Made by a program: the position numbers and the translations under genes. Of a stretch of DNA of 64,000 nucleotides, positions 1,917 to 26,229 are shown piece after piece; within the stretch, counting starts at the first letter, position 1, and each line of letters starts with the position of its first letter. Below the pieces are notes generated by a model. It did no database searches and was not told where the DNA came from. It saw only the letters and a list, made by a program, of their open reading frames with translations. The DNA is taken from IMG/VR virus record IMGVR_UViG_2537561978_000005, one strand, 5' to 3'. This DNA comes from a virus. Lineage: Duplodnaviria; Heunggongvirae; Uroviricota; Caudoviricetes.

Positions 1917-3424
1917 TGGCTGGCGGGCGCAAGATTAAATGCGTCACCAGCGATCCACGCTGGCGCGATATGGTAATCAAATACCGCTACAACTTTACCC
2001 AGGCTGTAGTCGATATTTTTGGGATGTTCCCCTCCCACCAGCAGCAGCAGATCATTCAGTCAGTGCAGGAAACGGGGAGTAGGACGACCGTCACGTCCGG
2101 ACACGGAACGGGGAAGTCGTCCCTTACCGCGATGTTGCTGTTGATTTTTATGATCCTGTTCCCCGATGCCCGTGTCATCATTGTTGCTAACAAGATAGGC
2201 CAGGTAAAAACAGGCGTATTCAAATACGTTAAACAGTATTGGGCGAATGCAGTTAAGCGTCATGGGTGGTTGCAGACCTATTTTGTCCTCTCTGACACCA
2301 TGTTTTATGAGCGCTCCCGTAAGGGGATTTGGGAAGTTCTCTGCAAAGGTTATCGACTCGGCAACGAAGAAGCGCTGGCGGGGGAACACGCGGCACATTT
2401 GCTTCTAATTCTGGATGAAGCATCTGGTATATCTGATAAGGCGATCGGCGTAATGACCGGTGCTCTTACTGAAGAAGATAACCGGATGTTGATGCTATCC
2501 CAGCCAACAAGGCCAAGTGGTTATTTCTACGATTCGCACCATTCTCGAGCAAAAACCCCAGACAACCCGAAAGGGATCTGGACAGCAATTGTTCTTAACT
2601 CGGAAGAATCACCGTTCGTCACACCACAATTCATCAAGGAGAAGCTTCTGGAATATGGTGGGCGCGATTCTATTGAGTACATGGTCAAGGTGCTTGGTCA
2701 GTTCCCACGAGAAATTAACGGCTATTTGCTTGGTCGTGATGAATGCGATCGCTCTGCTCGCCGCAAGGTGTTGTTGGAGAAAAACTGGGGATGGGTGGCA
2801 ACGGCTGACGTTGGTAATGGGCGAGATAAGTCGGTCCTCAACATCTGCAAGGTATCAGGTCACAGGGATAAGCGGCGCGTTGTTAACTTTAAGGTAATGG
2901 AGATGCCTGGCACTATGGACCCATTGGCCTTTGCTGACTTCATATATAACGAATGTACGCCGGAAAAATACCCGAATATAACAATCGCGGTTGATGCTGA
3001 TGGTTTTGGTTCTGATACGTGTGCGCAGTTGGTGCGTCGTGGTGCGAACCCGGTACGTATTCGGTGGGGAAAACCCATGTTTGCGAACAAAGACAGGGAG
3101 CGATTTGTTAATCAGCGTGCCTACGCAAATATTATGGCGCGAGATGCCATAAAGTCAGGGCGTATGCGGATAGACAGTGACCCTAAAACGGCAGAGCAAG
3201 CGTCAAAAATCCCCTTTTTACTGAATGAAGAAGGGAAAATGGCGATGATGCGCAAAGAGCACATGCGGCAAAAGCTAAACATCAAATCGCCTGACCGATG
3301 GGATACCTACTGCTTCACTATGCTGGTGGACTATGTGCCTGCTAATGAAGATATTGGTGCCGAAATGGCAACTTTCCGAGATCAGGTTCTGGCGGATATC
3401 GAAATGCCGGATCTGGATATATAA
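1916..3424 (+). CDS. pacB: terminase large subunit (PacB-like)
   Basis: 502 aa; Walker A SGHGTGKS, Walker B LLLILDEAS, C-terminal acidic nuclease-type motifs ATADVGNG and IAVDADGFG. Confidence 0.8.
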   Translation: MAGGRKIKCVTSDPRWRDMVIKYRYNFTQAVVDIFGMFPSHQQQQIIQSVQETGSRTTVTSGHGTGKSSLTAMLLLIFMILFPDARVIIVANKIGQVKTGVFKYVKQYWANAVKRHGWLQTYFVLSDTMFYERSRKGIWEVLCKGYRLGNEEALAGEHAAHLLLILDEASGISDKAIGVMTGALTEEDNRMLMLSQPTRPSGYFYDSHHSRAKTPDNPKGIWTAIVLNSEESPFVTPQFIKEKLLEYGGRDSIEYMVKVLGQFPREINGYLLGRDECDRSARRKVLLEKNWGWVATADVGNGRDKSVLNICKVSGHRDKRRVVNFKVMEMPGTMDPLAFADFIYNECTPEKYPNITIAVDADGFGSDTCAQLVRRGANPVRIRWGKPMFANKDRERFVNQRAYANIMARDAIKSGRMRIDSDPKTAEQASKIPFLLNEEGKMAMMRKEHMRQKLNIKSPDRWDTYCFTMLVDYVPANEDIGAEMATFRDQVLADIEMPDLDI

Positions 3425-4698: not shown

Positions 4699-4732
4699 AT
4701 AACTTTAAATAATTGGCATTATTTAAAGTTAG
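4699..4732. other. lox-like site: 13-bp inverted arms ATAACTTTAAATA / TATTTAAAGTTAG around 8-bp asymmetric spacer ATTGGCAT
   Basis: 34-bp architecture and arms resemble loxP (ATAACTTCGTATA-8bp-TATACGAAGTTAT); 150 bp upstream of cre-like gene. Confidence 0.7.
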
Positions 4733-4883
4733 GCTATAATTATGGGTAGATGATCAGTATTGACATCACTGAAAATACGCGCCTCGAATCAAAGGCTTGA
4801 ATCTTGAAAATTAACTTATAGCTACCCTGTCATTTTTATATTTTTCGCGTAGCGTTATCTGTATATAGAGGTTAAATAGTTTC

Positions 4884-5912
4884 ATGAGTGAATTAATTAT
4901 CTCTGGCAGCTCCGGTGGTTTTCTGCGCAACATTGGCAAAGAGTACCAGGAGGCCGCAGAAAACTTTATGCGGTTCATGAATGACCAGGGGGCTTATGCG
5001 CCGAATACTCTGCGCGACCTCCGGTTGGTGTTTCATTCATGGGCGCGCTGGTGTCACGCTCGCCAGCTTGCCTGGTTTCCGATCTCACCAGAAATGGCCC
5101 GCGAGTATTTTCTTCAGCTGCATGATGCCGATCTGGCTTCGACCACCATTGATAAGCACTACGCCATGCTGAATATGCTGCTTTCGCATTGTGGCCTTCC
5201 GCCACTTTCGGATGATAAAAGTGTTTCTCTGGCTATGCGGCGCATCCGGCGCGAAGCGGCAACTGAAAAAGGCGAACGAACAGGCCAGGCTATACCGCTT
5301 CGGTGGGACGATCTGAAACTGCTCGACGTCCTGTTGTCCAGGTCAGAACGGCTGGTGGACCTGCGCAACCGGGCTTTTCTCTTTGTTGCATACAATACGC
5401 TGATGCGTATGTCGGAAATCTCGCGTATTCGTGTAGGAGATCTGGATCAAACAGGTGACACTGTCACGCTACATATTTCACACACGAAGACAATAACGAC
5501 CGCCGCCGGGCTTGATAAGGTGCTTTCCCGTCGCACTACCGCTGTGCTGAATGACTGGCTGGATGTTTCCGGGCTTCGCGAACATCCTGACGCAGTGCTG
5601 TTCCCGCCGATACACCGTAGCAATAAGGCCAGGATCACGACAACGCCCCTTACTGCACCTGCAATGGAGAAAATATTCAGCGACGCCTGGGTGTTGCTGA
5701 ATAAAAGAGATGCTACGCCAAACAAAGGAAGATACCGGACGTGGACCGGGCATAGTGCACGCGTCGGGGCCGCTATTGATATGGCTGAAAAGCAGGTGTC
5801 TATGGTGGAGATCATGCAGGAAGGAACCTGGAAGAAACCGGAAACACTTATGCGGTATCTTCGCCGTGGCGGCGTGTCTGTGGGGGCTAATAGCCGCCTG
5901 ATGGATTCGTAA
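4884..5912 (+). CDS. cre: Cre-like tyrosine site-specific recombinase
   Basis: 342 aa; aligns along its length with recalled P1 Cre incl. NRAFLFVAYNTLMRMSEISRIRVGDL, HSARVGAA, catalytic Y in LMRYLRRG. Confidence 0.9.
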   Translation: MSELIISGSSGGFLRNIGKEYQEAAENFMRFMNDQGAYAPNTLRDLRLVFHSWARWCHARQLAWFPISPEMAREYFLQLHDADLASTTIDKHYAMLNMLLSHCGLPPLSDDKSVSLAMRRIRREAATEKGERTGQAIPLRWDDLKLLDVLLSRSERLVDLRNRAFLFVAYNTLMRMSEISRIRVGDLDQTGDTVTLHISHTKTITTAAGLDKVLSRRTTAVLNDWLDVSGLREHPDAVLFPPIHRSNKARITTTPLTAPAMEKIFSDAWVLLNKRDATPNKGRYRTWTGHSARVGAAIDMAEKQVSMVEIMQEGTWKKPETLMRYLRRGGVSVGANSRLMDS

Positions 5913-5985: not shown

Positions 5986-6330
5986 TTGCAGAGTCAAATC
6001 ACGGAATCAAGACGCTTCAAGGTGGATGGTTACACCGTAACCTTCGCCGCTGGTGTTAAGAACAGTCATGCTGTCGTTGTGTTCGGCATCATGACCGGGC
6101 TTGAGGCCGTCCCTGTGTTTACCCTCGAAAAAAACTGGCGAAATCTGGAGGAAGCAGAAAGCTACGTCCGGAAAGTAACCATCATTGCCGCCGAAAAACT
6201 CCTGGCCCACTATCAGGAAAATTATCGCACTATGGTCGAGAAGATTAATCTCGCTTTCACTCGCCCCACTACCGGCTTTATTGCACCGGATACTAATGCC
6301 GGTCGATATCCTGCAAGGGGGTGTCGGTGA
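5986..6330 (+). CDS. hypothetical protein
   Basis: 114-aa ORF, TTG start with AGGAGGG RBS 5 nt upstream. Confidence 0.5.
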   Translation: MQSQITESRRFKVDGYTVTFAAGVKNSHAVVVFGIMTGLEAVPVFTLEKNWRNLEEAESYVRKVTIIAAEKLLAHYQENYRTMVEKINLAFTRPTTGFIAPDTNAGRYPARGCR

Positions 6331-6803
6331 AAACTTATTACCCATCTCTGAATTGTTACCCGTCTTCCTATCCAGAATTATCCGGGAAGCTGTTAGCTCT
6401 ATTAGCTAAAGCACCTACGGAATGGTTTAAGCCAGTCGTTATCAATCCACACTTCCTGGGTTACGGATCTGTTCGCACTCGTAACGAACTCAAAAACCTA
6501 CTGGCGCATGGATTCATTCGACACCGTGCCGGGAAAGGCTATCAGTTAGCGATTGCGCCAGAAGAGGCCGTGCGGCTATTCGCATATCGTGACAGCCAGA
6601 CAAAAACTCGGGTAATAGCTCAAATACTTCATAACGGCAGCACCTATGCCCGCCAGTTTGGCGGCGACACGTCGCAGTTCTTGCGGGCGGTGCGATCGCT
6701 GGATGAGCAAGGAGTTATTGAAAGTTCCTGTCTTCCTGTTCCTACCGTTCCACATATCAAACGTCGGGTTTACACCTTCACGCAGAGAGCTAAAAAACAA
6801 TGA
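6321..6803 (+). CDS. hypothetical protein
   Basis: 160-aa ORF; stop overlaps dut start (ATGA). Confidence 0.5.
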   Translation: MSVKTYYPSLNCYPSSYPELSGKLLALLAKAPTEWFKPVVINPHFLGYGSVRTRNELKNLLAHGFIRHRAGKGYQLAIAPEEAVRLFAYRDSQTKTRVIAQILHNGSTYARQFGGDTSQFLRAVRSLDEQGVIESSCLPVPTVPHIKRRVYTFTQRAKKQ

Positions 6804-7294
6804 TTTACGTAAAAGTGAAACGCCTACATCCGGCAGCAAAACTTCCAGCTTATGCCACCTCCGGATCGGCGGCGATGGATTTTGAGGCTGTTGAAATAAA
6901 ACCATGCGTCGATAGCAATGGTGCAATTTCCTCAAGCTGGTGGGTGTATACCGGACTGGCTATGGAGATCCCGCCCGGCTGGTGTCTGAAACTCTATCCG
7001 CGATCAGGATTGGGCTGCAAAAAACATACTCGCCTGGCTAACTGCGTAGGAATTATCGACTCCGATTATCGCGGCGAAATCATGGCAAAACTGATTACTG
7101 ATCCCGGCGGGGAAGGCGTTTGTCTCAAGCCTGGAATGGCTGTCATGCAAGGAATTTTTGAGCGTGTTGAACAAGTCTCACTAGTCGAGGTTGAGGAACT
7201 CAACGAAACGGAGCGTGGTGCTGGTGGCTTTGGTAGCACATCGGAAGGCCACTTTGAAATTAAGCGTTCACCGCTTCAGTACGAAAAGTTATAA
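6800..7294 (+). CDS. dut: dUTP diphosphatase (dUTPase)
   Basis: 164 aa; motifs RSGLG and GIIDSDYRGEI typical of trimeric dUTPases. Confidence 0.8.
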   Translation: MIYVKVKRLHPAAKLPAYATSGSAAMDFEAVEIKPCVDSNGAISSSWWVYTGLAMEIPPGWCLKLYPRSGLGCKKHTRLANCVGIIDSDYRGEIMAKLITDPGGEGVCLKPGMAVMQGIFERVEQVSLVEVEELNETERGAGGFGSTSEGHFEIKRSPLQYEKL

Positions 7295-7308
7295 GCAGAG
7301 AAAAGACT

Positions 7309-7749
7309 ATGAATAACATGGCAACGAAAGAGCTTTTTAAGTTCCGTCCCAAATACAAAGCTCACAAAAAAAATGGAACCACGGTCATCATTACGGATGA
7401 CAACGGCGTGATGATTAATCTTACCGGGAGCGTAACTATTTCTGCTGGTGGCATCACCACCCAGCAAGAAGAAATCGACCTTGAAGCAGCCGACTTTTCA
7501 GACGCGCTGATGTGGCTGAAGGAAGGCAAGAAAGTTGCTCGACGCGGGTGGAACGGCGAAAACCAATTCTGCTGGCTGGTTCCTGAAGGACAGTACCCGG
7601 CACGAATGGAAGCCATTAAGGGATATTTCCCCGGCGACCTCGTTCCGTATGGTGCTTATTTCGCCTTAAAAAATGCACAAGGTGTAGTTGTTCCGTGGGT
7701 GCCTTCAGTTGGCGACCTGCTGGCCTGTGACTGGTTTGTTGTGGAGTGA
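7309..7749 (+). CDS. small protein with a DUF2829-like module (family recalled to include Thoeris anti-defence Tad2); unverified
   Basis: 146 aa; ALMWLKEGKKVARRGW ... VPSVGDLLACDWFVVE; same module at C-terminus of 23238..24179 product. Confidence 0.45.
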   Translation: MNNMATKELFKFRPKYKAHKKNGTTVIITDDNGVMINLTGSVTISAGGITTQQEEIDLEAADFSDALMWLKEGKKVARRGWNGENQFCWLVPEGQYPARMEAIKGYFPGDLVPYGAYFALKNAQGVVVPWVPSVGDLLACDWFVVE

Positions 7750-7755
7750 TTTGAC

Positions 7756-8523
7756 ATGGAAAGCACTAAAACAATTCAATACCGCTTGCGTAATGGCCTG
7801 CTGGTGGCTGTTAACGCCGACATGTCACTGCCGTTTGACACGATTGAACGCACTATCATGACGTATCTCGGCTTTAATGAAGAGCTGAATGAAGAGCATG
7901 GCGTAGCTATATGGAGTGATGCAGACAGCGGCGTTCGTCGTTACATCACCGCCAGGGGCAAAGACTACTCTCTGGAAGAACTGTTTGCCCTTGCGCAGTC
8001 TTTCGAATGTGTAGCATTAGACCTGTTTAATGATCCTGCTATAGCGCAACGACTTATACGCGAGCTTGGGCTATCCGTTACACCAATTATATTTAAAAAT
8101 GGCAGCCTGACTGGCACATGGCGCGTAGAACGCATCTCAAACTACCTTCCATATAACCGACAGTTAAATGGAGTAATCTCCGGCGTTAACCAGCCCGTAG
8201 CGTGTGAAAATGTAAACCTAGTTGTCGCTGTTTTGGCAACCGCATGTCGTGTTATCGGTTTGGCTAAACAGGCATTTATTCATTTCCCAAATGGTGCAGA
8301 AGGTAGCGCAGAGATTATCGCGTGTGATTTCGAATTTACCTGGATGCTACGCGAATATCTGGACCAAACAGTATTCCGTGCCGAAGAACTGGATATGTAT
8401 ATCACGTCAACGATTCCAGACGATGTGCGAGCTGAAGCAATCGCTACAGCCAGGGCGAAATGCCGTGCGGCGATTGCAGAACAGGCCAAAGAAGAAGTTA
8501 AGGAAGTGGCAGATGGCGACTAA
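7756..8523 (+). CDS. hypothetical protein
   Basis: 255-aa ORF; 3' end overlaps next gene by 11 bp. Confidence 0.5.
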   Translation: MESTKTIQYRLRNGLLVAVNADMSLPFDTIERTIMTYLGFNEELNEEHGVAIWSDADSGVRRYITARGKDYSLEELFALAQSFECVALDLFNDPAIAQRLIRELGLSVTPIIFKNGSLTGTWRVERISNYLPYNRQLNGVISGVNQPVACENVNLVVAVLATACRVIGLAKQAFIHFPNGAEGSAEIIACDFEFTWMLREYLDQTVFRAEELDMYITSTIPDDVRAEAIATARAKCRAAIAEQAKEEVKEVADGD

Positions 8524-9607
8524 GAGCAATATTTATAAAGATCCGCGCTGGCTGTCGCTGGTGGAGAAATATAAAGACAATTGGGTACTGGCAGCAAAAG
8601 AATTGTTTGATATTGATTTAAGCCACCAGCAACAACAAATTGTTGAAGCTATACAGCCCAATAATGCAAAAGCTACTGTCACCACTCCGTATGGGATCGG
8701 ACGACCGCAAGTGCTTGCTGTTATTAGTACCCTTTATACGATTATGTATCCTGATTCCCGGACAGTAATTGTTTATCCAAAATCAAATGTTTGCAAAAGA
8801 GGAATTGTTGCATATGTGTGGCAATGTTGGGAGGCATTGCTGAAAAAACAACCTTTTATCATTGAGTATTTTAAGGTCGGTGATAGCGGTCTGATGTTCA
8901 ATGAATTTTGGGGAATGTGCTTTTGTAACTTCCGCCTTAACTATGAAGATAGCATTGCAGGTCACTACGCCGACCATCTTTTATTCATTATTGTGGATTC
9001 CGCACATATCAGCGATCGGGCATACAGCATTGTGTGGGCAAGCATGACTAGTGGTGATTCACGCATATTGCTCACTTCAATTCCGTCACCAGAGGAAATA
9101 GGCTTTTTTTATGATTCACATCATGGACGTGCTTTAGCTGAAGATAATCCGAGTGGTGTATATAAAGCCATTAAGCTGAGTGCGGAGGATTCACCATTTA
9201 TTACCCAAGAATATCTTGATCATTTTGCCGAAAGGTATGGCGGGCGAAATAGTGATGACTATCGTCGTATGATTCTTGGTGAGTTCCCTGGTATTAGGGA
9301 GGCTGTTCTTGAATCAGATATGCCGAAGACAATGCGCTTTTCGATGCCTGATGGTAGTGAATGGACAATACCATTACGAGTGATAGCCCGGCATCATGCG
9401 CAGCACCACGCCAAAAAACATGGCGTCACGACATTAGAATGGTTGAAATCGCACACCATTCCACTCTTCACTGCAGATCACAATGCTATCGTTGAGTGGG
9501 CAAAAACAATTCCGTGGGAGAATGTCGCTGAATACGCCCACATGCTAAAACCGCCGAAAGACAGGCAAGAAATTAGCTGGCTGACAGCAGAAAAAATCAT
9601 TGAGTGA
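8513..9607 (+). CDS. terminase large-subunit paralogue, ATPase-domain only, with degenerate Walker motifs
   Basis: 364 aa from ATG 8513 (AGGAAG RBS); clear homology to PacB N-terminal domain (DPRW, SHQQQQI, YFYDSHH, YGGR) but Walker A TPYGIGRP and Walker B FIIVDSA; no nuclease domain. Confidence 0.6.
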   Translation: MATKSNIYKDPRWLSLVEKYKDNWVLAAKELFDIDLSHQQQQIVEAIQPNNAKATVTTPYGIGRPQVLAVISTLYTIMYPDSRTVIVYPKSNVCKRGIVAYVWQCWEALLKKQPFIIEYFKVGDSGLMFNEFWGMCFCNFRLNYEDSIAGHYADHLLFIIVDSAHISDRAYSIVWASMTSGDSRILLTSIPSPEEIGFFYDSHHGRALAEDNPSGVYKAIKLSAEDSPFITQEYLDHFAERYGGRNSDDYRRMILGEFPGIREAVLESDMPKTMRFSMPDGSEWTIPLRVIARHHAQHHAKKHGVTTLEWLKSHTIPLFTADHNAIVEWAKTIPWENVAEYAHMLKPPKDRQEISWLTAEKIIE

Positions 9608-9612
9608 TAGTA

Positions 9613-9642
9613 AGAAGCCCGCCTGGTTGAGCGGGCTTCTTT
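9613..9642. terminator. bidirectional intrinsic terminator GAAGCCCGC-loop-GCGGGCTTC + TTTT
   Basis: 9-bp stem between convergent genes (8513..9607 and doc). Confidence 0.6.
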
Positions 9643-21632: not shown

Positions 21633-22211
21633 ATGCAGAAACAGAGTTATTGGGAGAAACAGAGACAAAAAGCCATGCAAAAATTGGCTGACCCGGCCTG
21701 GCGAGAGGAACAAAGGGCAAAGCGCCTTCAACAAGCTCAACGCCAGCAGCAGCGAGCGAGAGAAAAAGCCGCATCGCCTGAATATCGGCAAAAGAAAATT
21801 GAAAAAGCAAAGCAATATGAACAGCGGAGAAAAGATAAAGCTGTATCCGCTCCGTCCAAAAAAACACGCACGTCACGCGGCCTGAAAGGCAGATCACTCA
21901 CAGCCGATGAACGCCGGATACAGACCGCTATCGGTGCTCTCCCCTGCATTGCCTGCCATATTCACGGGCAACATAGCCCAGTGGTATCCCTGCACCATAT
22001 CTTCGGGAGAACGGCAGAGAACGCGCATAAATATGTCCTCCCTTTGTGTAAATGGCACCACCAGTACGCAGCGCCAGCCGAGGTCAGAGAACAATATCCC
22101 TGGCTGGTCCCTGTTCATGCTGACGGAAAAATAGGCGGAAAAGCAGATTTCATGCGGCACAATGCCGATGAAATGACGTTGTATCAGATGGCGATTGAGT
22201 TGATAAATTAG
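21633..22211 (+). CDS. ref: Ref-like HNH-family nuclease
   Basis: 192 aa; highly basic low-complexity N-terminal ~95 aa then His/Cys-rich core (LPCIACHIHGQH ... LCKWHH), as recalled for P1 Ref. Confidence 0.5.
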   Translation: MQKQSYWEKQRQKAMQKLADPAWREEQRAKRLQQAQRQQQRAREKAASPEYRQKKIEKAKQYEQRRKDKAVSAPSKKTRTSRGLKGRSLTADERRIQTAIGALPCIACHIHGQHSPVVSLHHIFGRTAENAHKYVLPLCKWHHQYAAPAEVREQYPWLVPVHADGKIGGKADFMRHNADEMTLYQMAIELIN

Positions 22212-22226
22212 TTTTCTAACATTTTA
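22212..22226. promoter_or_regulatory. operator-like motif GTTTTCTAACATTTT
   Basis: immediately after ref-like stop, upstream of immI-like region. Confidence 0.3.
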
Positions 22227-22542
22227 AGTTGAATTGAAAAACTCTCCGATGTACATTCACTACCGATTGGCACACCGGTCAACTTTTTGAGACAAACTGT
22301 TTAGTTTTTCGTATTATTGCCTCCGCCATACCTATGGCGGTGCAATATAGGTGGCTGAAAAGCCCCCGTTGACTCACGGTGTTCCAGCCTTTATTGCGCC
22401 GCCACCAGACCGTGGAACAGTCGATGGCGGCTCCGAAAGCAAGGAGTCACAACACTATGAACAACTACAGTCTTTTCCCATCACTCGTCTTCCACCACTC
22501 ACGCGATAATCTGCATTCTTTACTCGCGCTGGAGGTGTCAAA

Positions 22543-22710
22543 ATGACGGTTCGCTACCTCAACTTTCAAATCAAGAACATTACTGGCGGTTGCTATGACT
22601 GGTTTGTCACTCTCGGAAAAGAAGTGATCACCGGGAAGCTGGATGAAGTGAAAGCTAAAGCAATGGCCTACGCCTGCAAGCAAGCCCGGAAGAAATCCGC
22701 CAAAGCATAA
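22543..22710 (+). CDS. small protein (55 aa), hypothetical
   Basis: GGAGG 7 nt upstream of ATG; preceded by coupled 29-codon ORF (22457..22546, AAGGAG RBS, ATGA overlap). Confidence 0.35.
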   Translation: MTVRYLNFQIKNITGGCYDWFVTLGKEVITGKLDEVKAKAMAYACKQARKKSAKA

Positions 22711-22759
22711 AATACTGACTGTTGCGCCCTGGCATTATCGTGGGGTATATTTCTACGGC

Positions 22760-22838
22760 ACCTTAGAAAAACGGGTGCCGGGATTGAGACCCCGGATAAT
22801 GCAAAAGGCGACACAGACGCCGAAAGCGTCTTTTTTTG
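22760..22838 (+). ncRNA. candidate small structured RNA (c4-like antisense regulator?)
   Basis: three consecutive hairpins ending in intrinsic terminator; contains GATTGAGACC repeated at 22971-22980 near icd-position RBS, and complementary GTCTCAA at 22940-22946. Confidence 0.3.
22815..22838 (+). terminator. intrinsic terminator AGACGC-CGAAA-GCGTCT + T7
   Basis: 6-bp GC-rich stem followed by TTTTTTT. Confidence 0.65.
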
Positions 22839-23022
22839 TGTCATGCCATCGCACAGCCATACGTAGCGTATAGCTCCAAGATCAATGGTAGTGCTGGCTG
22901 GGCTGCCGAAAGGCAGGCCGGTTCCCTTTTGCGCCGGTAGTCTCAACCCAGCCAGTGCTACCGCCATTGAGATTGAGACCTCACGCGGTAGCTCCTTAAA
23001 TTAGCAAAAGGAGGCTGCCAAT

Positions 23023-23238
23023 ATGGCTACTATCCCTACCCCAACTCATTCTGAATTTATCTGGCGTTTCTATTCCTGCCAAAAGCACCTGTATATCTGC
23101 GTCATGGCTGCTACCGAATCAGAGGCGCGCTCATACCTTCCCGAAGAACCCTGCATTTTTGCTGCTCGCTTCACTCTTGATGCGATGGAGATCCTCAATT
23201 ACTGGAATCTGCCGATGAACTGCGTGGAGGTGCGCTGA
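23023..23238 (+). CDS. small protein at the position of P1 icd; unverified
   Basis: 71 aa; AAAGGAGG RBS; stop overlaps ant-like start (TGATG). Confidence 0.4.
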   Translation: MATIPTPTHSEFIWRFYSCQKHLYICVMAATESEARSYLPEEPCIFAARFTLDAMEILNYWNLPMNCVEVR

Positions 23239-24179
23239 TGAATCTGTCCATCTCTCAAAAAGCGACAATGACCAGCATTGAGATCGCGGAGCTGGTAGGA
23301 AGTCGCCCAGATAGTGTGAAGAGAACTATCGAAACACTGGCTAAAAAGAGTGTGATCCAATTTCCACAATCTGTGGAAATTGAAAATAAACAATCAGTTG
23401 GCCCTCGTCGATTTTCCAAGGCTTACATCTTTGAAGGCGAACAAGGAAAACGAGACAGCATCATTGTCGTCGCGCAGCTCTCTCCGGAATTCACCGCCCG
23501 GCTGGTGGACCGCTGGCGCGAACTGGAGAATGCCCGGGTACAGTTAAAATCAAAAGCCGAAATCCTGGCTGAAATGGCGCAAATGCATCTTGAGCATGAA
23601 CGCCGGATCAACGCCGTAAATGCCCAGGTAGCCGAGGTATCAGCACAAGTATCGATGGTCGCTGAAACCGTCGAGCAAATAAAGAAAGGCAATATTCCGG
23701 AAGGCTACATTGGCTACCGCCAGTTGGCGGCGAAATGTGGCCTGACTGAAGCCAAATGTCGCAACCTGGTTAACGCTTACCGGATTCCCACCGATACGCA
23801 TGAGTTTTTAACTCCAGATGGTTTGCTTGCGCGACGCTCCATTGTGGCCCTGGCCCCCTTCCGGAAAGCCTTTAAGCAGGTGATGTCAGAGGCAGAACCA
23901 CGCAATAAACGCTGGTATCATCCAAAGATGGGGATGTTTCAGGCAATCCACCATCCTGTGCCTGAAAGTCCAAAGGCAAACCTGTCGTTGCATACCGCCA
24001 GAGAGAGGATTAAAACAGGCTATGCAATCGTATGCCGTCGAGCATCCTGGCCTGAAGGTGTATGGGTGTGGCCCGAAGGTGGATCACGAAAGCACTGGCG
24101 CACTATCCGGGATGGGAAAATCCATGCGATTGATTTAGCTCCAGAGGATGTTGTTGCTACGGACTGGATTGTTAGTTAA
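23238..24179 (+). CDS. antirepressor-like protein, Rha-family N-terminal domain with DUF2829-like C-terminal module
   Basis: MTSIEIAELVGSRPDSVKRTIE (Rha-like); in-frame internal Met; C-terminus ARERIKTGYAIVCRRASW ... DVVATDWIVS. Confidence 0.65.
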   Translation: MNLSISQKATMTSIEIAELVGSRPDSVKRTIETLAKKSVIQFPQSVEIENKQSVGPRRFSKAYIFEGEQGKRDSIIVVAQLSPEFTARLVDRWRELENARVQLKSKAEILAEMAQMHLEHERRINAVNAQVAEVSAQVSMVAETVEQIKKGNIPEGYIGYRQLAAKCGLTEAKCRNLVNAYRIPTDTHEFLTPDGLLARRSIVALAPFRKAFKQVMSEAEPRNKRWYHPKMGMFQAIHHPVPESPKANLSLHTARERIKTGYAIVCRRASWPEGVWVWPEGGSRKHWRTIRDGKIHAIDLAPEDVVATDWIVS

Positions 24180-24187
24180 TTACTGTT

Positions 24188-24209
24188 GCCCCGGCCTGTC
24201 CGGGGCTTT
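24188..24209 (+). terminator. hairpin GCCCCGG-CCTGT-CCGGGGC + TTTA
   Basis: 7-bp GC stem after ant-like stop; short T-run. Confidence 0.4.
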
Positions 24210-24238
24210 AACTACTAAATAACCGGATTCTCCGCACG

Positions 24239-24526
24239 ATGAAGAAAATAGATTTCACTTACTCTGCTGCCACAATCCAGCGACGTTTCAGTCTCATAAG
24301 GGAAGTGGAACTATCAAAAAACTGCTATCAAATTCTACTGGATGAAGAGTTTTCACTGATGGTTATAGCAGAAAAATTGGCTATGCCGAATGACCGACAC
24401 AAGGTCATAGCCAGCCTCGATCTGGTGACAAACAGATACTGGGAGACAGAGGAACTACATGAAGCGGGAGTAATTCGTGGCCTGATGGAGAATTCCGTTC
24501 CCCGTCGTTATAGTGTGATGAGCTAA
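24239..24526 (+). CDS. hypothetical protein
   Basis: 95-aa ORF. Confidence 0.45.
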   Translation: MKKIDFTYSAATIQRRFSLIREVELSKNCYQILLDEEFSLMVIAEKLAMPNDRHKVIASLDLVTNRYWETEELHEAGVIRGLMENSVPRRYSVMS

Positions 24527-24670
24527 AACTCACCTGCACACCGTCAGGCCCAACGCAAATAAATGAAACATCCCGCTCTTGGTGTTTCAGTGAAATAGCT
24601 CATTTTTAGCTTGGAAGCAACTTGATTATGAGCTAAGCCTGACATACACTTCAGCGAGAAAATGATCAAG

Positions 24671-24716
24671 TTAAAGACACAAAAGCTCTGTTTTAACAGA
24701 GCTTTTGTGTCTTTAA
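24671..24716. repeat. perfect 46-bp palindrome (22-bp arms) TTAAAGACACAAAAGCTCTGTT|TTAACAGAGCTTTTGTGTCTTTAA
   Basis: read directly; lies in AT-rich intergenic region before the AT-rich cassette; no flanking T-run. Confidence 0.85.
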
Positions 24717-24850
24717 AACATAGATATCATGCCATATATAGTGCCAAAATTAGTTTTAGACACTATATATATTATAAAGGTAAAAACCGCTTCTACTTTT
24801 AACATCCACAGAAAAAGAAAGCGGTTATAGATAAGGGAAAAGGAGGGGTT

Positions 24851-25156
24851 ATGCTCTATGCGGTTCCTCAGCAAGCTTCTGATTCTTTGAAGTTAATCAA
24901 GACTGTACTTCAGCTTATAGCATCTCAACAAGAAGTGTCACAGCAGTTAAAGTTACGGGTTTATGAGGTGATCAGAGAAGCCTCAAACTTAAGTGTAGAT
25001 AAAGGTGATCAATTACAGATTCCTTCTCACAGAGAGTCCATCTCGCTCGCGGTAGAGATACGCCACACTAAGGCGCTCGCCCAGGTGCTAACCAAAGTAA
25101 CTAGCGAAGATATGTTAGAACCCGTAATGGCCCGGAATGTATTAGAGTACATTTAA
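24851..25156 (+). CDS. hypothetical small helical protein (first gene of AT-rich cassette)
   Basis: 101 aa; GGAGGGG RBS; stop overlaps next start (TAATG). Confidence 0.5.
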   Translation: MLYAVPQQASDSLKLIKTVLQLIASQQEVSQQLKLRVYEVIREASNLSVDKGDQLQIPSHRESISLAVEIRHTKALAQVLTKVTSEDMLEPVMARNVLEYI

Positions 25157-26229
25157 TGCTTGCATTTACACAACTTACATTAGTTCGAAATAAGCTAAGG
25201 GAGATATCAGAATCTCCCTATTTTTCTAAAGACATGCATGAATATCTTGCTGTTCTACAAGAAGCGGTAGATAAGCTCTATGAAAACCATGTGAATGTTG
25301 CTGATAAAATAATTGCGGATTGTACTTTTTTTATCACCGATGCAGTTAATTTTTTCACTGGCAGTACTACAAAGAAAATTCCCTACGAGATTGTTTATTG
25401 CTTAAATGATGCCTGTAAAAAATGGATAAGTGAAAAAACACTTATAACCACAGCCCTATCTCCAGATATGCATGGGTTTTATTTTAAGTCTGTAAACAAG
25501 AATTTGTATTCTTTATTTGATGAAGTTTTAAATGTCAAATTCGAGGTCGAATTAATTCAGATTTCATTACCTGAAATGTACAGAAGACGACCATTATGCT
25601 CTATACCTTTATATCACGAATTGGGACATTTCGTTGATATTAGCAAAGGTATTTCTGAGCTTGCCTGTCTTAACTATCGTTCCAAGGACAAAGGCACACT
25701 TCCAGGACCAGAATGGAGTAATCTACCTGATGTTATTTGGATAAATCATTGCAGAGAATATTTTGCAGATCTATTTAGTGCCCAATTTATTGGAAAAAGT
25801 GGGGTAGATTTCTTATACAAATTAGCTGGCTCTCATCCTGCAAGCTATACTCACCCATCCACAGAAGATAGAGTTAAAATTGTAAGCGACTTTTTGAACA
25901 AAGTGGAAAATCCAGTTGTTGGCATGTTCAATGCTGTGATATCAGCCTTACATAAGGGTGGGCAGATTATTTCTCCTTGTTTGACATTGCCGACACCTTT
26001 GCTTGATGTGAAATCAGCTTTTGATAATGTGCGTCCTTTTGTTATTCGCGACCACAATGAAATGCATGCTTTTATTAACAGCAGCTGGCAGTACTTATGC
26101 TCTGAATGGGAAAAACCTACGGGTATATGGTCTGGGTTGTCAAAAGAAGCCATAGAAAAAACTATAAATGATTTGGTTGAAAAATCGATTCGAAACGTAA
26201 TGATTCTTGAAAAATGGAGTGCACAATGA
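25156..26229 (+). CDS. ImmA/IrrE-type (COG2856-like) HExxH zinc metallopeptidase domain protein
   Basis: 357 aa; LYHELGHFVD followed ~35 aa later by REYFADLFSAQFIG (E-x-FA signature). Confidence 0.55.
   Translation: MLAFTQLTLVRNKLREISESPYFSKDMHEYLAVLQEAVDKLYENHVNVADKIIADCTFFITDAVNFFTGSTTKKIPYEIVYCLNDACKKWISEKTLITTALSPDMHGFYFKSVNKNLYSLFDEVLNVKFEVELIQISLPEMYRRRPLCSIPLYHELGHFVDISKGISELACLNYRSKDKGTLPGPEWSNLPDVIWINHCREYFADLFSAQFIGKSGVDFLYKLAGSHPASYTHPSTEDRVKIVSDFLNKVENPVVGMFNAVISALHKGGQIISPCLTLPTPLLDVKSAFDNVRPFVIRDHNEMHAFINSSWQYLCSEWEKPTGIWSGLSKEAIEKTINDLVEKSIRNVMILEKWSAQ

Follow-up and report, generated by a model that had tools for sequence, protein, structure and literature searches.

A Tad2-family deletion allele in a D6-like phage-plasmid and a probable remote relative of its domain in the antirepressor Ant

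Does a phage-plasmid that carries a DUF2829 gene encode one sponge for immune signals, or two? The question is raised by a window of 64,000 nucleotides (the whole stretch of DNA analysed here; IMG/VR record IMGVR_UViG_2537561978_000005, Caudoviricetes). An earlier note on it had described a common DUF2829-like module in a stand-alone protein and at the C-terminus of an antirepressor-like protein, and had related this module to the Thoeris anti-defence protein Tad2. At positions 6000-9000 and 22000-25500, the window shares 98% identity with Escherichia phage D6 (a circular phage-plasmid of 91 kb, related to P1), and E. coli plasmids of ~90-98 kb such as pGF60-C are collinear with the window. 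The window is a portion of a D6-like (P1-related) phage-plasmid from E. coli or Salmonella. Both open reading frames (ORFs) were recovered where the note had placed them, with the peptides that it had quoted:

7309 to 7749, + strand: ORF1, a Tad2-family (DUF2829) protein of 146 residues, present as the D6-type deletion allele (RefSeq WP_001061875.1).
23238 to 24179, + strand: ORF2, a D6-type antirepressor (Ant, Rha family) of 313 residues, annotated in D6 as 'anti-repressor Ant'.

We consider it likely, as a whole, that ORF1 is a Tad2 sponge and that the tail of Ant is a remote relative devoid of the ligand pocket. ORF1 itself is an uncharacterised member of an already known kind of protein, and what is new here is only its structure as a deletion allele and the remote DUF2829-like tail of Ant. 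Each of the two modules, Tad2 domain and Ant tail, occurs as a single copy in the window and no more.

The family that the earlier note had named proved to be the right one for ORF1. Its residues 62-145 match Pfam PF11195 (Tad2-like, formerly DUF2829) over profile positions 2-73 of 73, with 81.6 bits (E=5.9e-23) for a curated cut-off of 25 bits. Its best phmmer match among Protein Data Bank (PDB) sequences is ModTad2 (9EIB/8V3E, E about 1e-21 to 8e-21), and further matches are HgmTad2/AcrIIA7 (8KBI, 4e-11), SPO1 Tad2 (8SME, 1e-9) and SptTad2. The elements of the Tad2 fold were all found, i.e. helix alpha1, a five-stranded antiparallel sheet, and helices alpha2/alpha3 in the beta2-beta3/beta4-beta5 loops. 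On the basis of its sequence, the complete Tad2 domain is assigned to residues 58-146 of ORF1:

7480 to 7746, + strand: Tad2 domain of ORF1 (codons 58-146), with all core pocket residues and a ModTad2-like beta2-beta3 insertion.

The residues holding ADP-ribose (ADPR) in the pocket have been defined by crystallography and mutagenesis in two members of the family. The ligand contacts are W25, N26, W73, S76 and D79 in SPO1 Tad2 (10.1101/2023.05.01.538930), and W21, N22, G23, W87, S90 and D93 in HgmTad2 (10.1101/2023.11.15.567273). All the ADPR-pocket residues are kept in ORF1 as W81, N82, G83, W130, S133 and D136, and they are nearly invariant across 33 non-redundant Tad2 relatives. The assignment is in line with existing annotation, the RefSeq name of ORF1 being already 'DUF2829 domain-containing protein' (also used in the annotation of D6 and pGF60-C). 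In the same vein, a 2025 preprint lists 'Tad2 AcrIIA7 (anti-Thoeris)' for phage-plasmids, in 93% of the D6-like and in 56% of the P1-like ones (10.1101/2025.09.12.675607).

ORF1 would accordingly act as a Tad2-family immune-signal sponge. By homology, its Tad2 domain is predicted to assemble as a homotetramer, which would sequester an ADPR-derived signal made by a bacterial TIR (Toll/interleukin-1 receptor) protein, and Thoeris ThsA or a similar defence effector would then stay inactive during infection by the element or its induction. Tetramerisation, ligand identity and anti-defence activity are what we infer for ORF1 by analogy with its relatives. The family is functionally plastic, and inhibitors of Thoeris (types I, II and IV), of Pycsar and of CBASS are found among its different members (10.1101/2025.08.24.671296). 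That the ligand of ORF1 is some TIR-derived ADPR signal appears highly probable to us.

Regarding specificity, the sequences of four tested Tad2 proteins were taken from a published supplement for comparison. The ORF1 domain scores 78.5 bits against ModTad2 (45% identity) and 41-48 bits against SPO1, Hgm, Cca and Tmo Tad2, and its beta2-beta3 insertion aligns almost gap-free with that of ModTad2. The threonine that hydrogen-bonds the adenine in both type I binders (SPO1 T78 and Hgm T92) is S, A or G in three type II inhibitors and G in ORF1. LKNAQG, the beta4 strand of ORF1, recurs unchanged in CcaTad2. ModTad2 binds His-ADPR (type II Thoeris) as well as cUMP/cCMP (Pycsar) (10.1101/2024.01.03.573942; 10.1101/2025.08.24.671296). 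Since ModTad2 is the nearest characterised relative, His-ADPR is our best, still tentative, guess for the ligand of ORF1. The specificity features listed above are hints and not proof, and specificity in the Tad2 family is not predictable at 45% identity.

Several points weigh against a sponge function of ORF1. At the periphery of the pocket, three of its residues are unlike those of all characterised Tad2 proteins (T65 replaced by N, D67 by Q and H71 by V); a fourth peripheral contact, T78 in SPO1 Tad2, is G in ORF1. The 57-residue N-terminal leader could disturb assembly, since the tetramerisation of Tad2 involves helix alpha1. Finally, a literature search found no binding or anti-defence assay for ORF1 or its P1/D6-type homologues, and the part covered of the supplement to an 84-sponge screen contains no close tested homologue.

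A different target is brought to mind by the homology of ORF1 to AcrIIA7 (8kbi_A, E=4e-11; 9kzr_A, E=1e-10) and by the history of the Tad2 family, which was first reported as a Cas9 inhibitor: ORF1 could be an AcrIIA7-like anti-CRISPR protein and not a signal sponge. This appears very improbable. ORF1 is far nearer to ModTad2 than to AcrIIA7 and, to our knowledge, the CRISPR systems of E. coli and Salmonella belong to type I, not to type II-A. Moreover, inhibition of SpyCas9 by HgmTad2/AcrIIA7 and homologues was not reproduced, either in vitro or in vivo (Li et al., 10.1101/2023.11.15.567273), and the anti-CRISPR function of ORF1 was rejected on these published negative data.

The earlier note had overlooked that a longer protein with two domains exists, of which ORF1 is an allele with an internal deletion. 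Close homologues on contigs of ~90 kb mostly have 216-233 residues, and in the protein alignment ORF1 equals the 225-residue form minus residues 21-99. The DNA alignment of the window with locus L002 and D6 reveals a clean in-frame deletion of 237 bp (79 codons), whose junction is identical in phage D6. The long form occupies the same locus as ORF1, among c1, cre, two ORFs, dut, the gene itself (X), an isaA-like gene and a 364-residue ORF. The parts of the allele that precede the Tad2 domain are as follows:

7309 to 7368, + strand: codons 1-20, retained stub of the N-domain of the long form (short helix and start of the first strand), from the alignment to the 225- and 233-residue forms.
7366 to 7373, + strand: A8 run, junction of the deletion relative to the long form, from the DNA alignment.
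7369 to 7479, + strand: codons 21-57, low-confidence linker KNGTTVIITDDNGVMINLTGSVTISAGGITTQQEEID between the lost N-domain and the Tad2 domain, from the equivalent region of the long form P0009.

In the AlphaFold2 (AF2) model of P0009, the stub region comprises a helix at residues 4-12 and a strand at residues 15-17, and the equivalent of the linker (residues 98-137) has a predicted local distance difference test score (pLDDT) of ~48-55. The N-domain of the long form covers ~80 confidently folded residues, and its structure matches only generic oligonucleotide/oligosaccharide-binding (OB) or small-barrel folds. Neither this domain nor the N-terminal leader of ORF1 has a match in Pfam or among PDB sequences. 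The deletion takes away the OB-like N-domain and spares the sponge domain.

Such a loss might have inactivated the protein, 79 of the 225 residues being gone, among them a confidently folded domain. ORF1 would then be a decaying remnant that persists because its deletion is recent and in frame, in a locus prone to deletions and insertion sequences (IS), as seen from the dUTPase fusion P0036, further truncated forms and the IS-disrupted copy of RCS47. We hold this improbable, since the Tad2 domain is complete with all pocket residues intact, and the papers cited above report full activity for stand-alone domains of 86-89 residues (SPO1 Tad2, ModTad2). Besides, the same junction is found in the independently isolated phage D6, and the exact 146-residue protein is present on 527 contigs of E. 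coli and Salmonella, above any single long-form variant listed (102 for the commonest of these); the frequency of the allele is taken here from counts of exact proteins. The DNA of the Tad2 domain was found in 189 of 5,426 complete E. coli genomes, where 187 of 193 places are plasmid-borne.

The last argument against a remnant is that differing deletions spare the Tad2 domain. In P0036 (241 residues, on contigs of up to 88.6 kb), found in some D6-like plasmids and equivalent to window positions 6800-7749, an independent deletion has produced an in-frame fusion of dUTPase and Tad2 domain (junction ...ERGAGG/ITTQQEE...), so that the N-domain and most of the linker are gone and the Tad2 domain is kept. 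Other architectures with an intact Tad2 domain are Tad2 plus crAss001_48 and a stand-alone protein of 86 residues, and the long-form alignment contains several unrelated N-terminal domains on the same Tad2 core. Since the common allele and the differing deletions all leave the Tad2 domain intact, selection arguably acts on this domain and the N-domain is dispensable. The 146-residue deletion allele is evidently common and maintained, and no one-off lesion. The Tad2 domain itself varies, with at least three allelic versions of the beta2-beta3 insertion in P1/D6-type Tad2; in one of these alleles the ligand-contacting W-N-G is replaced by W-K-G. This variation suggests ongoing diversification of specificity within one plasmid family.

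Two related genes lie in other phages. In Escherichia phage RCS47 (FO818745.1, 25583-25813), the Tad2-like gene is labelled 'part 2' beside an inverted repeat and is apparently disrupted by an IS. A Tad2-like ORF also adjoins a dUTPase gene in Bacillus phage Shanette (KC595513.2, 93206-93475), which is unrelated.

The second half of the question concerns the end of the antirepressor:

23973 to 24176, + strand: C-terminal module of Ant (codons 246-313), phrog_7385 type, with a probable remote, minimal DUF2829-like fold.

The motif by which the two proteins had been connected needed correction. Its literal form, A-L-x-K-x-G-x-V/I-x-R-R-x-W, matches neither protein (the spacing from K-x-G to R-R-x-W is off by up to two residues), and a relaxed form fits both. 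Among 1,165 six-frame ORFs of the window, the relaxed pattern [LI]K.G.{2,4}V.{0,1}RR.{1,2}W ... D..A.DW, which was derived post hoc from ORF1 and ORF2 themselves, is found in these two only; shuffled ORFs give about 0 matches to its N-terminal part and 0.06 to its C-terminal part.

Because pairwise BLASTP of ORF1 against ORF2 is empty, the relation had to be tested at the level of profiles. Aligned with hhalign, a five-member tail family matches 33 Tad2 domains end-to-end, with a probability of 87-88%, P=3-4e-6 and a score of 33-34. None of 200 column shuffles reaches this score (mean 10.6, standard deviation 2.3, maximum 23.2) and the reversed alignment scores 12.0. Under the same mapping, six of the seven predicted secondary-structure elements of the tail are in register with the Tad2 domain. 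A transitive link is provided by the stand-alone protein P0252 (96 residues), which matches the tail at E=1.2e-5 and 40% identity in a library of 1.8 billion proteins. P0252 also matches PF11195 (E=6.2e-5, 23.9 bits, profile positions 2-71 of 73) and no other Pfam family.

These results have to be balanced against a series of adverse ones. The best pairwise BLASTP hit between ORF1 and ORF2 has E=2.4. The tail alone scores 12.4 bits against PF11195 (E=0.23), under the cut-off of 25, with profile positions 4-72 covered; full-length ORF2 has no PF11195 match at E<=1. No significant Tad2 was returned from PDB sequences by phmmer, used with the tail, or by a hidden Markov model of the tail family, and PHROGs splits the tail (phrog_7385) and the Tad2 domain into separate families. 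The AF2 model of the tail is of low confidence (pLDDT 61), and a Foldseek search returns no Tad2. Finally, the tail profile is thin (an effective sequence number, Neff, of about 2) and attempts to enrich it were unsuccessful. A word-indexed search gave eight close hits, and five turned up when 1.8 billion representative proteins were searched exhaustively; a scan of IMG/VR yielded only copies at least 85% identical, and a scan of GTDB species genomes yielded none.

With these adverse results in mind, the likeness could be convergent or accidental: short Trp-rich alpha+beta modules may resemble each other, and the tail would be an unrelated, Ant-specific phrog_7385 domain. We regard this as rather unlikely in view of the profile-profile alignment and its null distributions. 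The tail is probably a true homologue of DUF2829, though a very divergent and minimal one. In this form, the claim that Ant ends with the same module as ORF1 stands as remote homology, below the Pfam threshold and across separate PHROG families.

Does this tail make a second sponge? The hhalign mapping shows that it keeps W25 (as W271), D79 (as D304) and the invariant C-terminal D-W, and replaces N26 by P272, G27 by E273, W73 by I298, S76 by A301 and T78 by E303. The same losses are seen family-wide in tails (N26 to P, H or S; G27 to E, D or L; W73 to I, F or Y; S76 to A, S or T). In addition, the V-dimer interface and the second pocket of Tad2 are made by the beta2-beta3 insertion, opposite which the tail shows a gap of ~19 residues in the hhalign alignment, and the model of the tail has no helix there. 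Because these pocket residues and the insertion are gone from the tail, a canonical gcADPR/His-ADPR sponge fused to Ant is not supported. The second signal sponge proposed in the earlier note lacks support on this ground, with N26 changed to P, W73 to I and S76 to A and the whole insertion missing.

The tail is nevertheless constrained. Ten of its residues (C, R, R, W, W, P, P, D, D and W) are invariant among relatives of just 30-40% identity and, in 116 Ant homologues, it is less variable than the Rha N-domain (14 of 68 versus 55 of 100 columns). The tail also circulates as a separate protein of 65-96 residues; in locus L004, the homology to ant sets in precisely where an independent ORF of 81 residues starts (MGMFQ). 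Among 50,697 phage records, D6 alone carries the tail. The tail may serve Ant as an interaction or oligomerisation module.

The same observations could be read in favour of a functional small-molecule binder, either a second sponge (for a signal other than gcADPR/His-ADPR) or a sensor domain. The tail is remotely homologous to a fold that binds nucleotide signals, keeps W271, D304 and the C-terminal D-W, has an invariant residue set of its own, is constrained in the Ant homologues, and exists as an independent small phage protein, as is typical of sponges. Besides, Tad2 pockets are known to be re-targeted to many ligands (10.1101/2025.08.24.671296). This explanation is improbable all the same: three core pocket residues are replaced, the V-dimer interface and second pocket have no counterpart, Tad2 pockets form only in the tetramer, and the homology on which all depends is itself only probable. 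Its sensor version, in which the tail would couple antirepressor activity, and hence prophage induction, to an immune or metabolic nucleotide of the host, is equally improbable. We give slightly less weight still to the tail being a re-purposed Tad2-like domain that acts as a nucleotide sensor in Ant or as a sponge for an undescribed signal. As a sensor, it would let a host immune or stress nucleotide link the lysis-lysogeny switch to the activation of signalling-based defence. In either role, the free phrog_7385 protein of 65-96 residues would do the same job in other phages. We favour a pocketless relative of Tad2 for the tail.

The surroundings of the stand-alone tail copies were also recorded. 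In L004 (GCA_009767295.1, WSHR01000028.1), the 81-residue copy (3001-3246) lies 227 nt downstream of a cre-like integrase of 342 residues. Genes for IS26-family transposases are near the copies of L004 and L005, and a ParE toxin gene is near that of L006. The accessory position next to cre is where D6-like plasmids carry dut-tad2.

The antirepressor identity of ORF2, also put forward in the earlier note, holds well. Residues 2-313 match phrog_63 'anti-repressor Ant' (E=1.3e-61), and Phage_pRha is detected on residues 11-98 with 26.2 bits, slightly below its cut-off of 29.9; precomputed PF09669 matches are assigned to most close homologues. Two features directly precede the gene:

22881 to 22968, + strand: C4 antisense RNA upstream of icd-ant (Rfam RF01695, 76 bits for a gathering score of 45).
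23023 to 23238, + strand: icd-like ORF of 71 residues, the end of which overlaps the ant start codon (phrog_1426; 'host cell division inhibitor Icd-like protein' in D6).

From its sequence and neighbours, ORF2 is assigned as the Ant of a c4-icd-ant operon with the P1 immI layout. Just upstream of the C4 RNA, at 22758-22836 (+ strand), Rfam also reports a match to the Hfq-binding small RNA isrK (59 bits, gathering score 50). The middle of Ant (residues 156-230, positions 23703-23927) has one variable column out of 75, versus 55 of 100 in the Rha N-domain (116 homologues, at least 76% identity), and is a candidate for a conserved functional core, e.g. for C1 binding.

ORF1 lies in a packed string of genes that runs from cre to a 364-residue ORF:

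4884 to 5912, same strand as ORF1: cre, at the start of the string.
Between cre and dut, same strand: two ORFs without known function.
6800 to 7294, + strand: dUTPase gene (dut), separated from ORF1 by a 14-nt gap; annotated in D6 and pGF60-C, with PF00692 in L002.
7756 to 8523, same strand: isaA-like gene, just after ORF1.
8513 to 9607, + strand: ORF of 364 residues, last gene of the string (phrog_5902, function unknown).

The sole strong promoter-like site of this string is at 4713-4740, upstream of cre, and a terminator-like hairpin follows the last gene at 9621-9636. ORF1 may be co-transcribed with the whole string. Pfam scans of its neighbours for further anti-defence functions found none, and in PHROGs these genes match only families without a known function. 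Control of the tad2 operon by C1 was addressed by a search of the window for the P1 C1 operator consensus ATTGCTCTAATAAATTT, which gave 0 matches with up to three mismatches allowed. Given this absence of P1-type C1 operators, D6-type immunity evidently uses other ones. As for the 364-residue ORF, a weak local match connects its residues 143-265 with the terminase large subunit (phrog_2). The ORF is found in the window, in L002 and in pGF60-C and is absent from D6, whose match stops near 8496.

What do these results bring? A very common family of E. coli/Salmonella phage-plasmids carries a gene for a Tad2-type sponge, as predicted here, closest to the His-ADPR/cUMP binder ModTad2; by itself this adds little, having been flagged already by RefSeq and by the 2025 survey. 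More useful to those who will test these proteins, the common D6 allele is a naturally occurring deletion form ('domain-only plus leader') of a protein with two domains, in a family where the OB-like N-domain is repeatedly lost and where the insertion and the W-N-G loop differ between alleles. Only the Ant tail is mildly surprising. If its homology is true, a protein of the lysogeny switch has taken up a sponge fold devoid of its pocket, and this would be a new instance in which a domain is exapted between anti-defence and regulatory genes. A tail that still binds a ligand would tie immunity signalling to prophage induction.

Compared with known sponges, ORF1 stands nearest to ModTad2 (MoTad2) from a Myroides odoratus prophage (PDB 8V3E, apo; 9EIB, with His-ADPR), a single-domain protein of 88 residues to which ORF1 adds its leader of 57 residues. 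ModTad2 has no such leader, which in ORF1 is the remnant of a two-domain ancestor. G135 of ORF1 is S in ModTad2, and N, Q and V of its beta4 strand are T, D and A. Binding of His-ADPR and cUMP/cCMP is experimental for ModTad2, whereas that of ORF1 is predicted from homology. SPO1 Tad2 (Gp34.65; PDB 8SME), the founding anti-Thoeris type I sponge, has the Pfam family and W25, N26, W73, S76 and D79 in common with ORF1; the two differ by an identity of only 36-39%, a different insertion, and the lack of conservation of T65, D67, H71 and T78 in ORF1. HgmTad2 (AcrIIA7; PDB 8KBI) is a dual sponge for gcADPR and cyclic dinucleotides, in which a much longer insertion forms the cGG/cGAMP pocket. Since the insertion of ORF1 is ~16 residues shorter, binding of cyclic dinucleotides cannot be assumed for it.

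The closest relatives of ORF1 are the long-form DUF2829 proteins of P1/D6/SJ46 type (216-233 residues; P0009, P0018), 98-99% identical to it over the shared parts. They have the start codon and the locus (c1-cre-orf-orf-dut-X-isaA-like) in common with ORF1, and carry the additional OB-like beta-barrel N-domain of ~80 residues that ORF1 has lost. For the Ant tail, the nearest counterparts are small phage proteins of phrog_7385 (E=4e-15) and the C-terminus of Ant proteins of phrog_63 (E=2.5e-16). The stand-alone proteins P0251, P0252 and P0005 share with it the signature CRR..W..G.W.(W/F)P ... P(E/N)D....DW. Neither phrog_7385 nor the C-terminus of phrog_63 has an annotated function, so that membership is silent on the mechanism of the tail. 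Finally, the P1 immI operon is laid out as c4 antisense RNA, icd and ant1/2, and its gene order, with C4 RNA, an icd-like gene overlapping the ant start and the antirepressor, is that of the D6-type operon. Unlike in the P1 immI operon, the D6-type Ant is a Rha-family protein that bears an extra C-terminal module.

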